Positions 34,574 through 35,367 of a DNA stretch of 64,000 bases are shown here, piece after piece. The DNA lies in the IMG/VR virus record IMGVR_UViG_3300045988_052707, positions 15,837 to 79,836 of that record. One strand, given 5' to 3'. The stretch comes from a virus. Both the position numbers and the translations under genes were made by a program. Below the pieces are notes generated by a model. That model was given only the letters and a program-made list of their open reading frames with translations, was not told where the DNA came from and ran no database searches. Numbering within the stretch: position 1 is the first letter of the stretch; every line of letters begins with the position of its first letter.

Positions 34574-35206
34574 TCAATTTAAGTTCAACAATCTGTGGAC
34601 CTGATGAGACTCGAACTCACGACCCTCCTTTTGCCTCCTATATACACGGCTACTATTCACATTGAGACTGCCATAAGTCTCTGTTAGTGAATGACAATTA
34701 GGACATAATAATTCCAAGTTGTCTTCGCTGTTATTAACACAGTTACCATCCTTGTGATGAATCTGTAGAGGAATTAATCCAGTAGACGGATTAATCTCTC
34801 CCCATCCACATTTCTGACATTTATCGGAATACTTGTTAAATAGATATTTACGTATATACTTAGATGTGGCATACTTACCTATTACTCCAGACTCTTCTCC
34901 GTTCTTCCATCGTTCAATGTATGATGTATATTCGTACTGAGCCTGACAATCATTGGAGCAGTATTTCTTAGCACTATAATCCAATTCTTTACCACAATTT
35001 AAGCAATATCTGGCTATCCTAGAAGTATCTTTGTTAAATGTTTCGCATGGATTTATCTTCCTTCTTGATGGTAAATCAATTCCCAATCTAGACGCTGCCT
35101 TCTTAACAGCATTTCCAGTAACTCCATACAATCTACCGATTGCTTCATAGGATAGATTCTGGATTAGTATTAAATTCTCTAATTCTTCCTTGTTATATTT
35201 GCTCAT
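34574..35206 (-). CDS. HNH homing endonuclease with N-terminal HTH
   Basis: HNH motif LQIHHKDGNCVNNSEDNLELLCPNCH plus CxxC pairs; freestanding inside the tRNA array; C-terminal ~17 codons overlap a tRNA-like T-arm. Confidence 0.7.
   Translation of the reverse strand: MSKYNKEELENLILIQNLSYEAIGRLYGVTGNAVKKAASRLGIDLPSRRKINPCETFNKDTSRIARYCLNCGKELDYSAKKYCSNDCQAQYEYTSYIERWKNGEESGVIGKYATSKYIRKYLFNKYSDKCQKCGWGEINPSTGLIPLQIHHKDGNCVNNSEDNLELLCPNCHSLTETYGSLNVNSSRVYRRQKEGREFESHQVHRLLNLN
34590..34625 (-). other. tRNA 3'-half remnant (T-arm + acceptor 3' strand) overlapping 3' end of HNH gene
   Basis: GTGAG-TTCGAGT-CTCAT T-arm followed by CAGGTCC-A, but no complementary 5' acceptor/D-arm found upstream. 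Confidence 0.4.
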
Positions 35207-35295
35207 AATATTCGTACAATTTTAACTGTACAAATATACGAACATTCAAGTTCGAATCCAATAAAATTCAACACTTTCCAAATTATTAGACCTAG

Positions 35296-35367
35296 TGGAG
35301 GCACCGAGAATCGAACTCGGGTCTTTAGCGTGCAAAGCTAACATAATTGCCACTATACTATGCCCCC
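35296..35367 (-). tRNA. tRNA-Ala (anticodon TGC)
   Basis: Acceptor GGGGGCA/TGCCTCC (G3-T70 wobble), anticodon arm TTAGC-TTTGCAC-GCTAA, T-arm CCGAG-TTCGATT-CTCGG. Confidence 0.55.

Follow-up and report, generated by a model that had tools for sequence, protein, structure and literature searches.

The stretch of viral DNA analysed here (the window, 64,000 nt) comes from a phage genome with some 30 tRNA genes, and ARAGORN called almost all of these on the minus strand. Within this array lies an open reading frame (ORF) for a predicted HNH endonuclease, which is preceded on the same strand by a spacer and an intact tRNA-Ala(UGC), and which overlaps a tRNA 3′ fragment at its own 3′ end (Table 1). 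The upstream tRNA-Ala, referred to below as allele C, carries a G3:U70 pair and is the sole tRNA-Ala within the window. The HNH ORF lies 6 nt upstream of an ORF for a 192-aa protein, beyond which a tRNA-His is found (33906-33979); the initial annotation had placed the nuclease gene between tRNA-His and tRNA-Ala, which is correct, with the 192-aa ORF intervening on the tRNA-His side. A DNA-level search of isolate phage genomes returned tRNA matches only and no close cultured relative, and the best identity found for a 670-aa marker protein of the phage was at most 50%.

Table 1. Coordinates of the features at the locus, and of the tmRNA gene, in the window.
Feature	Position	Strand	Details
Flanking 192-aa gene	33989..34567	minus	predicted membrane segments; outside the element
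HNH endonuclease ORF	34574..35206	minus	210 aa
Scar, 3′-terminal 32 nt of the resident allele A tRNA-Ala	34596..34627	minus	from identity to relatives
GAGTTCGA, downstream copy of 8-nt direct repeat	34611..34618	minus	T-arm of scar; 700 nt from upstream copy
Replaced/inserted segment, full extent	34628..35367	minus	740 nt relative to allele-A empty sites; junctions compared with L002-L020
Spacer between tRNA-Ala and HNH ORF	35207..35295	minus	89 nt, conserved
tRNA-Ala(UGC), allele C	35296..35367	minus	ARAGORN; Rfam tRNA, 64.2 bits
GAGTTCGA, upstream copy of 8-nt direct repeat	35311..35318	minus	T-arm of allele C
tmRNA gene	44686-45189	minus	Rfam RF00023, model positions 1-374, 66.6 bits (gathering score 47)

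The spacer contains the block AAAGTGTTGAATTTTATTGGATTCGAAC and an imperfect hairpin directly before the ATG. It is kept in three contigs with related nucleases (L021-L023) and in 18 metagenome loci, and is probably an expression or regulatory signal, though a putative one. A Bacteroidota-type promoter was considered and rejected: the spacers of L021-L023 fit the pattern TTTG-N19-TAnnTTTG, but the window copy has TTGG, and the pattern was not clearly enriched in the window (three minus-strand matches against 1.3 expected, with a maximum of four in shuffled sequence). The likeness is therefore kept as a resemblance only.

The nuclease and its read-through tail

The protein consists of an N-terminal helix-turn-helix (HTH) domain resembling sigma-factor region 4 (approximately residues 1-45), a Cys4 zinc ribbon (C68-C87), and an HNH core (residues 128-175) with the pattern CxxC...HH...N...CxxCH, followed by a read-through tail (residues 194-210). 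Alignment of 23 family members revealed that C68, C71, C83, and C87 of the zinc ribbon, and C130, C133, H150, H151, N163, C168, and H172 of the HNH core, are invariant. PHROG families of HNH proteins matched the sequence (phrog_1271, E = 1.9e-19, and ten more families), and the Pfam models HNH and HNH_3 scored below their curated cut-offs (16.9 vs 21.4 bits and 18.9 vs 24.8 bits, respectively). A database search yielded 3,475 homologs at E ≤ 1e-5, typically of 189-200 aa and many with PF01844, and the tblastn matches were annotated as HNH endonuclease. Searching the PDB with the nuclease sequence gave nothing significant (best E = 0.13-0.16).

The AlphaFold model had a mean pLDDT of 81.8, with values greater than 89 over the nuclease core, where strands 148-151 and 164-167 and helix 169-173 were each modelled above 89. 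The best Foldseek matches in the PDB were EcoKMcrA (E = 6.5e-3, probability 1.00), PacI, Cap5, and the HNH domains of Cas9; the E-values are weak because the query is multi-domain. The three-helix head at the N-terminus matched sigma-factor region 4 in the fold search. All profile and fold matches of the nuclease were to HNH proteins, none to a GIY-YIG domain. The combination of HTH, Cys4, and HNH elements read from the DNA in the initial annotation is thus borne out by the invariant residues, the structure model, and the fold matches, and the protein belongs by sequence and fold to the HNH (His-Me finger) endonuclease superfamily. The dN/dS ratio between nuclease variants was 0.06-0.09, with synonymous sites saturated, which indicates that the protein is under purifying selection. 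The exact 210-aa protein was present in 132 blocks of public assemblies, in which the named samples were human-gut metagenomes.

Homologous nucleases end at residues 189-199, and the final 17 residues of the window protein have no counterpart except in one homolog (P0004, 85% identical), which has the same junction. The junction was also as in the window in ten contigs carrying the exact 210-aa protein that were examined. These 17 residues can be traced to the tRNA fragment GAGGGTC-GTGAG-TTCGAGT-CTCAT-CAGGTCC-A and the flank behind it. The fragment runs from 2 nt of the anticodon stem through the variable loop and T-arm to the 3′ acceptor strand with the discriminator. Codons 194-204 are located within this fragment, and codons 205-210 and the stop codon in the native intergenic flank, so that the last 17 codons are recipient-derived, in agreement with the overlap of about 17 codons noted in the initial annotation. 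The C-terminal tail is most likely accidental. The fragment lacks a 5′ half, as had also been noted: the 5′ acceptor strand GGACCTG is absent from the minus strand of the whole window, and ARAGORN in intron mode called no split tRNA at the locus.

Comparison with phages lacking the HNH gene identified the source of the fragment. It matched the 3′ end of an intact tRNA-Ala at 32/32 positions in eight such relatives, and at 31/32 in another (L004), and the flank downstream of it was also identical to that of relatives with this allele (allele A). This makes the fragment the 3′ end of the resident tRNA-Ala, and the disrupted target gene is, judged by this identity, tRNA-Ala itself in its allele A form. 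The fragment, or scar, was invariant in ten further HNH-carrying contigs. Short hairpins of the TTCGA type do arise by chance, and a relaxed T-arm scan returned 13 orphan matches in 128 kb (both strands), so one may ask if the T-arm-like stretch arose by accident in the terminal part of an ordinary ORF. Against this, the match to a real tRNA-Ala is complete and continues into the flank, and the related nucleases stop short of the stretch; the probability of such an accident is negligible. A strict scan of the whole window found three TTCGA T-loops outside the default tRNA calls of ARAGORN, all of them tRNA-derived, namely the scar, a tRNA-like gene at 18.9 kb, and the tmRNA. A role of the scar as a functional structured RNA was also considered. 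The fold of positions 34560-34680 was not more stable than shuffled sequences (z = 0.84), and the scar is missing from an intact cassette variant (L056, see below); for these reasons, the sequence was treated as a scar.

Empty sites and tRNA-Ala alleles

The 192-aa gene, which served as the right-hand homology marker, was used as a query for finding empty sites, and a search of IMG/VR with its protein retrieved 19 phage contigs (L002-L020) at 95-99% identity. The HNH gene was missing in 17 of the 19, and the site was occupied instead by one intact tRNA-Ala(UGC), ending 27 nt before the 192-aa gene. Alignment with HNH-less relatives, as proposed in the initial annotation, thus recovered an intact target at the same site, and the central claim of that annotation, that the 3′ remnant stems from a tRNA gene into which a homing endonuclease gene had moved, is borne out by these empty sites. 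Presence or absence of the gene at a single locus, among relatives whose flanks are only about 2% apart, is the pattern of free-standing homing endonuclease genes of the T4 Seg/Mob and T5 heg type.

The tRNA-Ala genes at the empty sites were of two kinds. Allele A (GGGCCTGTAGCTCAGATTGGCTAGAGCATCTGCCTTGCACGCAGAGGGTCGTGAGTTCGAGTCTCATCAGGTCCA) was found in nine contigs, one of them with a single SNP, and allele B in eight. Allele C of the window differs from allele A at about half of its positions, with the G3:U70 pair retained. On its left side, the heterology is bounded by the tRNA 5′ end, where only GGG is held in common; these three nucleotides open the 740-nt segment and are the same in every allele. 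Compared with a genome that has allele A, the cassette replaces tRNA positions 4 to approximately 41. The core reading of the initial annotation stands, with the refinements that the disrupted gene is tRNA-Ala itself in a different allele and that the adjacent tRNA-Ala, far from being a bystander, is part of the incoming cassette. Allele B, too, takes the place of allele A, with equally precise edges and without a nuclease gene; something besides this nuclease can hence exchange alleles here, which counts against the homing reading.

Taken at a probability of about 0.8, the region is a free-standing homing-endonuclease cassette that consists of tRNA-Ala(UGC) allele C, the 89-nt spacer, and the gene for the HTH/zinc-ribbon/HNH protein. 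A different arrangement, in which a tRNA gene is split by an HNH-encoding intron (group I or other) and its halves are spliced, deserves consideration. Group I introns in the anticodon loops of bacterial and phage tRNA genes can carry homing endonuclease ORFs, and the scar of a related locus (L021) starts at position 37 of the anticodon loop, as such an intron might predict. However, no match to Intron_gpI or any other intron family was obtained at E ≤ 10 in positions 33000-37000, or at the gathering score in the whole window, so that the group I intron cores to be looked for according to the initial annotation were found neither at the locus nor elsewhere in the window. The missing 5′ acceptor strand and the empty result of ARAGORN's intron mode are further obstacles, and the sequence upstream of the ORF is a complete and different tRNA-Ala rather than a 5′ half. 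A spliced tRNA is, hence, very improbable, and the ORF stands by itself, separate from the complete tRNA that ends 89 nt before it.

Linkage, decay and paralogs of the cassette

At least four tRNA-array contexts contain allele C, spacer, and HNH gene as a set (the window, L021, L022, and L023). The three last-named are IMG/VR contigs with differently ordered tRNA arrays and nuclease homologs of 74-80% identity, and in each of them a tRNA-Ala(UGC) identical or near-identical to allele C precedes the HNH gene by about 87 nt. A search with the spacer pattern revealed 18 further metagenome loci; a tRNA-Ala ends 16-19 nt upstream in 17 of them, that is, in all 17 for which upstream sequence was available. 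The allele C tRNA is, as this linkage in sequence indicates, cargo of the HNH gene.

The same order of an intact tRNA-Ala, a nuclease gene, and a 3′ tRNA-Ala part would also result if a tandem duplication of tRNA-Ala (C then A) had been interrupted by the HNH gene, with loss of the 5′ part of the second copy and no cargo involved. In two other loci (L026 and L027), the upstream tRNA (a CUA suppressor) and the remnant (Met-like) differ in isotype, so that the upstream tRNA need not be cargo. Two tRNA-Ala genes were, however, seen in none of the 19 close relatives, each of which has a single one, placed alike with respect to both flanks. Alleles A and C, differing at about half of their positions, are not recent duplicates, and allele C, spacer, and nuclease travel together into four contexts. 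An origin by duplication is accordingly quite unlikely, and the cassette with linked cargo remains the preferred reading.

The junctions of related loci account for the fused reading frame. In L021, L075, and L077, the nuclease gene has its own stop codon, and directly behind it lies a slightly longer allele-A scar starting at A37 of the anticodon loop; in L023 and L072, another Ala-like 3′ remnant follows the nuclease gene. The window junction equals that of L021 minus 16 nt. A deletion of about 16 nt at the junction presumably removed the stop codon of the nuclease and fused the ORF to the scar, and as a result, the frame continues across the scar and stops in the flank.

Intact, broken, and lost forms of the cassette were all found. 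Intact cassettes are present in the window and in L046-L056. In L056 and several metagenome contigs, allele C and the spacer are accompanied by another nuclease variant, the second (193 aa, 81% identical), which has its own stop codon and no scar. This second variant has suffered an internal deletion in L019 and L079, leaving 43 codons, and in L081 and L085 the nuclease gene is interrupted by premature stops or frameshifts. A nuclease gene is missing altogether from L017, which carries a chimeric tRNA-Ala in which the first 57 nt are allele C and the rest is scar. Apart from two substitutions, this is the product expected of a deletion between the two GAGTTCGA repeats; the chimera is no longer called a tRNA by ARAGORN and is thus a pseudo-tRNA. 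Comparison of the window and L056 cassettes showed about 97% identity over the tRNA, the spacer, and the HTH region, and 65-70% over the nuclease domain, a split which indicates that the nuclease genes are mosaics.

Eleven cassette-carrying genomes showed one variable column in the 633 nt of the ORF, compared to a divergence of about 2% in the flanks; this low diversity is partly a matter of ascertainment, since the contigs were fetched by exact protein identity. The haplotypes A, B, and C with HNH gene were interspersed when the genomes were clustered by either flank, and essentially no flank SNPs of the kind left by co-conversion tracts were linked to the haplotype or cassette, so that a tract length cannot be assigned. 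Such interspersion is consistent with repeated conversion at sharply bounded edges, but could also reflect generally high recombination rather than conversion driven by the nuclease.

The strong purifying selection and the wide spread of an identical protein might alternatively be explained if the nuclease had been domesticated and served the phage, in exclusion or in the amplification and exchange of tRNA genes against tRNA-cleaving defences, with the scar being incidental. The three very different tRNA-Ala alleles on otherwise about 98%-identical backgrounds fit such a function, and SegB of the T4 group is known to drive the amplification of tRNA and anti-defence genes (PMC13096335). On the other hand, roughly half or more of the related phages lack the nuclease, degraded and deleted copies are common, and paralogs destroy tRNA genes outright. 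We know of no tRNA-Ala-specific defence against which such a function would be directed. Domestication is unlikely as a replacement for homing, with which it may coexist.

Related nucleases pointed to the part of the tRNA gene that is probably attacked. In three sister phages (L059-L061), a paralog of 58% identity occupies the place at which the window has an intact tRNA-Glu(UUC) (30413-30486). There, the nuclease gene replaces exactly the 18-nt anticodon arm, so that positions 1-25 of tRNA-Glu are separated from the variable loop, T-arm, and acceptor strand, and the paralog's ORF also reads through the T-arm remnant. The Ala scars begin at tRNA position 37 or 42. Orphan tRNA 3′ remnants also follow the genes of more distant relatives, one of which combines the same HTH with another kind of nuclease domain, and paralogs adjoin Ala, Glu, Arg, Gly, Leu, and suppressor tRNAs. 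From the clustering of junctions at the anticodon arm, we infer that the family may cut tRNA gene DNA there; each paralog would be specific for one tRNA isotype. An intron-containing tRNA-Phe(aaa) that ARAGORN called in L059 was rejected as a forced fit, the site being tRNA-Glu(UUC) with its anticodon arm replaced. The anticodon arm is the only part of a tRNA gene whose key bases cannot change without altered decoding.

Homing of the cassette could proceed as follows. During co-infection, the nuclease would nick or cut a rival tRNA-Ala allele at the DNA level, within or close to the segment for the anticodon arm, and repair would copy the cassette from the donor, using as homology the upstream flank and the scar with its downstream flank. 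The recipient would lose its own allele and gain allele C with the nuclease gene. Allele C would be a cleavage-resistant version of the target as well as a functional replacement for it, so that the phage retains a tRNA-Ala. One possibility is that the locus is a cut-and-replace drive acting on tRNA genes, with an isotype-specific HNH enzyme aimed at the anticodon arm of rival tRNA-Ala genes, and with allele C conferring immunity and being the payload; this stronger proposal is tentative, and the odds are against it. If it holds, the family of 3,475 homologs would be natural nucleases each specific for one tRNA gene, and nuclease activity would maintain the sharp multi-allele polymorphism of phage tRNA loci, which might help to spread tRNA variants that escape tRNA-cleaving defences of the host.

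Relation to known homing systems

Homing endonucleases in phage tRNA clusters are already established, and the kind of system described here is known, not new. Homologs of the window protein occur in the tRNA arrays of T5-like phages, an Enterococcus Schiekvirus, and a crAss-like phage. SegB of T4, a GIY-YIG enzyme, cuts tRNA genes at a T-loop motif and causes the T4 tRNA region to be inherited preferentially (PMC2330249), and its homologs are statistically associated with tRNA genes (PMC13096335). Both nuclease genes are free-standing among phage tRNA genes and absent from close relatives, and both enzymes would have tRNA gene DNA as their target, with co-inheritance of flanking tRNA genes. 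The likeness is one of lifestyle only, the window enzyme being HNH. SegB has a relaxed specificity for the T-loop motif of many tRNAs, whereas the junctions seen here lie at the anticodon arm and suggest one isotype per paralog. Unlike the SegB case, the resident tRNA is here partly overwritten, and the replacement allele arrives with the nuclease.

The tRNA region of T5 contains several HNH endonucleases (heg; F-TflI, II, and IV; Akulenko et al. 2004, as related in PMC2330249 and in PMC10644984). The HNH genes of T5 type, like that of the window, are located in tRNA arrays directly beside tRNA genes. T5 hegA shares the homologous nuclease module, with 50% identity over the HNH core, and gp177 of the T5-like phage HdH2 is 40% identical over 124 aa spanning zinc ribbon and HNH; the additional N-terminal sigma-4-like HTH sets the window protein apart from the T5 HNH proteins. 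In the T5 record, hegC and hegD overlap tRNA genes at their 3′ ends, and one of these tRNA genes is flagged as a pseudogene. The pair of hegD and pseudo-tRNA-Gln was rejected as an exact precedent, that pseudo-tRNA being of full length with no 3′ remnant. A linked replacement allele is not described for T5 in the accounts consulted.

SegF, SegG, and SegE of T4 are examples of intronless homing, and MobE of homing in trans (as cited in PMC2330249; PMC2790892). Their logic is that proposed here: the nuclease gene lies beside its target, the donor allele differs, and repair co-converts neighbouring sequence. The targets of these enzymes are protein-coding genes or intergenic sites, whereas at the present locus a whole tRNA gene replaces the one destroyed. 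The cassette resembles tRNA group I introns with homing endonucleases in being inserted at or beside the anticodon loop or arm, and differs from them in having no ribozyme core and no 5′ exon, with a second gene copy, instead of splicing, compensating for the damage.

What the locus adds is a well-resolved case of a nuclease that brings a replacement tRNA allele with it and leaves behind a scar that can be dated, and a natural-history series of empty, scarred, decaying, and lost states at one tRNA locus of an abundant human-gut phage. Movement of a nuclease gene and a tRNA gene as a unit can explain differences in tRNA arrays between close relatives, as well as the tRNA fragments and pseudo-tRNAs that adjoin HNH genes. 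For annotation, it follows that tRNA 3′ fragments may be scars, and that the C-terminal tails of ORFs may be read-through artefacts. Phage tmRNA calls for similar caution. The stretch at 44695-44725, which the initial annotation had listed as a second orphan tRNA fragment, is not a scar but the 3′ tRNA-like end of the phage tmRNA (Table 1), a gene that escaped ARAGORN in both default and intron modes.

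Variation at the tRNA-Ala locus and across the tRNA array

The cassette of tRNA-Ala(UGC) allele C, spacer and HNH nuclease gene was itself found to vary among contigs. A cassette-carrying contig, L052, contains a 20-nt deletion at about 2830-2850, through which allele C has lost its 5′ acceptor strand; this phage would be left without a working tRNA-Ala. The spacer hairpin segment, TTGTGCAGTTAAAA, is present as three tandem copies in L019 (3740-3800) and L079, and the contigs with this triplication are those with the internally deleted nuclease gene. In L017, which has a chimeric tRNA-Ala and lacks the nuclease gene, the 1 kb upstream of the chimera differs by ~22% from the sequence of every other relative. 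The entire 2.6-kb upstream stretch of L017 (1-2589) yielded no tRNA calls, so a larger replacement has taken place there.

The polymorphism among the near-identical phages (L002-L020) extends to other spots of the same tRNA array. Further indels of several hundred bases were observed at about 1150-2150 of the locus, in the interval from tRNA-Lys to tRNA-Asn and in the vicinity of tRNA-Trp/tRNA-Ser. A "tRNA-Asn" call of 88 nt was also noted in L006, L012, and L015.

Related nucleases at other tRNA genes

An HNH paralog, P0046 (212 aa, 58% identical), was found in 43 blocks of assemblies. In the sister phages L059-L061 (1915-2640), the paralog stands in place of exactly the 18-nt anticodon arm, and the tRNA-Glu is destroyed; the corresponding tRNA gene of the window is intact (see table). 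The contigs L026 and L027 (around 2772-3700) carry tRNA(CUA), followed by a nuclease and then a tRNA-Met-like 3′ remnant. This nuclease shares its HTH head with the HNH nuclease of the window, and has a different nuclease domain. The tRNA-Met beside the tRNA(CUA) of the window is missing from several close relatives.

Additional tRNA and structured RNA features of the window
Feature	Position	Strand	Call
Val-like tRNA-like gene	18858-18941	-	ARAGORN, intron mode only
Intact tRNA-Glu(UUC), "empty site" for HNH paralog	30413-30486	-	
tRNA-Arg(tcg) call within tRNA-Ser(gct)	30819-30922	+ within -	ARAGORN
Amber-suppressor-type tRNA(CUA), adjoining tRNA-Met	38695-38767	-	
RAGATH-34 RNA family match	43050-43158	-	RF03103, 113.7 bits vs 60.7
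Phage-encoded tmRNA	44686-45189	-	Rfam RF00023
tRNA with 6-nt anticodon loop (TTACAA)	45768-45838	-	ARAGORN "tRNA-??? (ac)"; Rfam tRNA, 48.6 bits

Unusual tRNA calls, tmRNA and RAGATH-34

The window contains only two Val-like tRNAs, neither of them canonical. The first has good acceptor, D, and T arms, an anticodon loop that is ~13 nt too long, and a score below the Rfam tRNA gathering score; it was read by ARAGORN as tRNA-Val(cac) with a 13-nt intron, and could be either a damaged tRNA or a tRNA carrying a small insert. The second looks like tRNA-Val(UAC) short of one loop base. The overlapping tRNA-Arg(tcg)/tRNA-Ser(gct) pair is called likewise in most relatives, and its plus-strand member is most likely a mirror-image artefact.

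What the initial annotation had taken for a second orphan tRNA fragment proved to be part of the tmRNA, which matches RF00023 over its full length (66.6 bits; Rfam gathering score, 47) and has an acceptor stem of the G3:U70 type. This tmRNA was not reported by ARAGORN, even with the tmRNA option included. The RAGATH-34 match is strong, and a 231-aa ORF lies immediately upstream of it.
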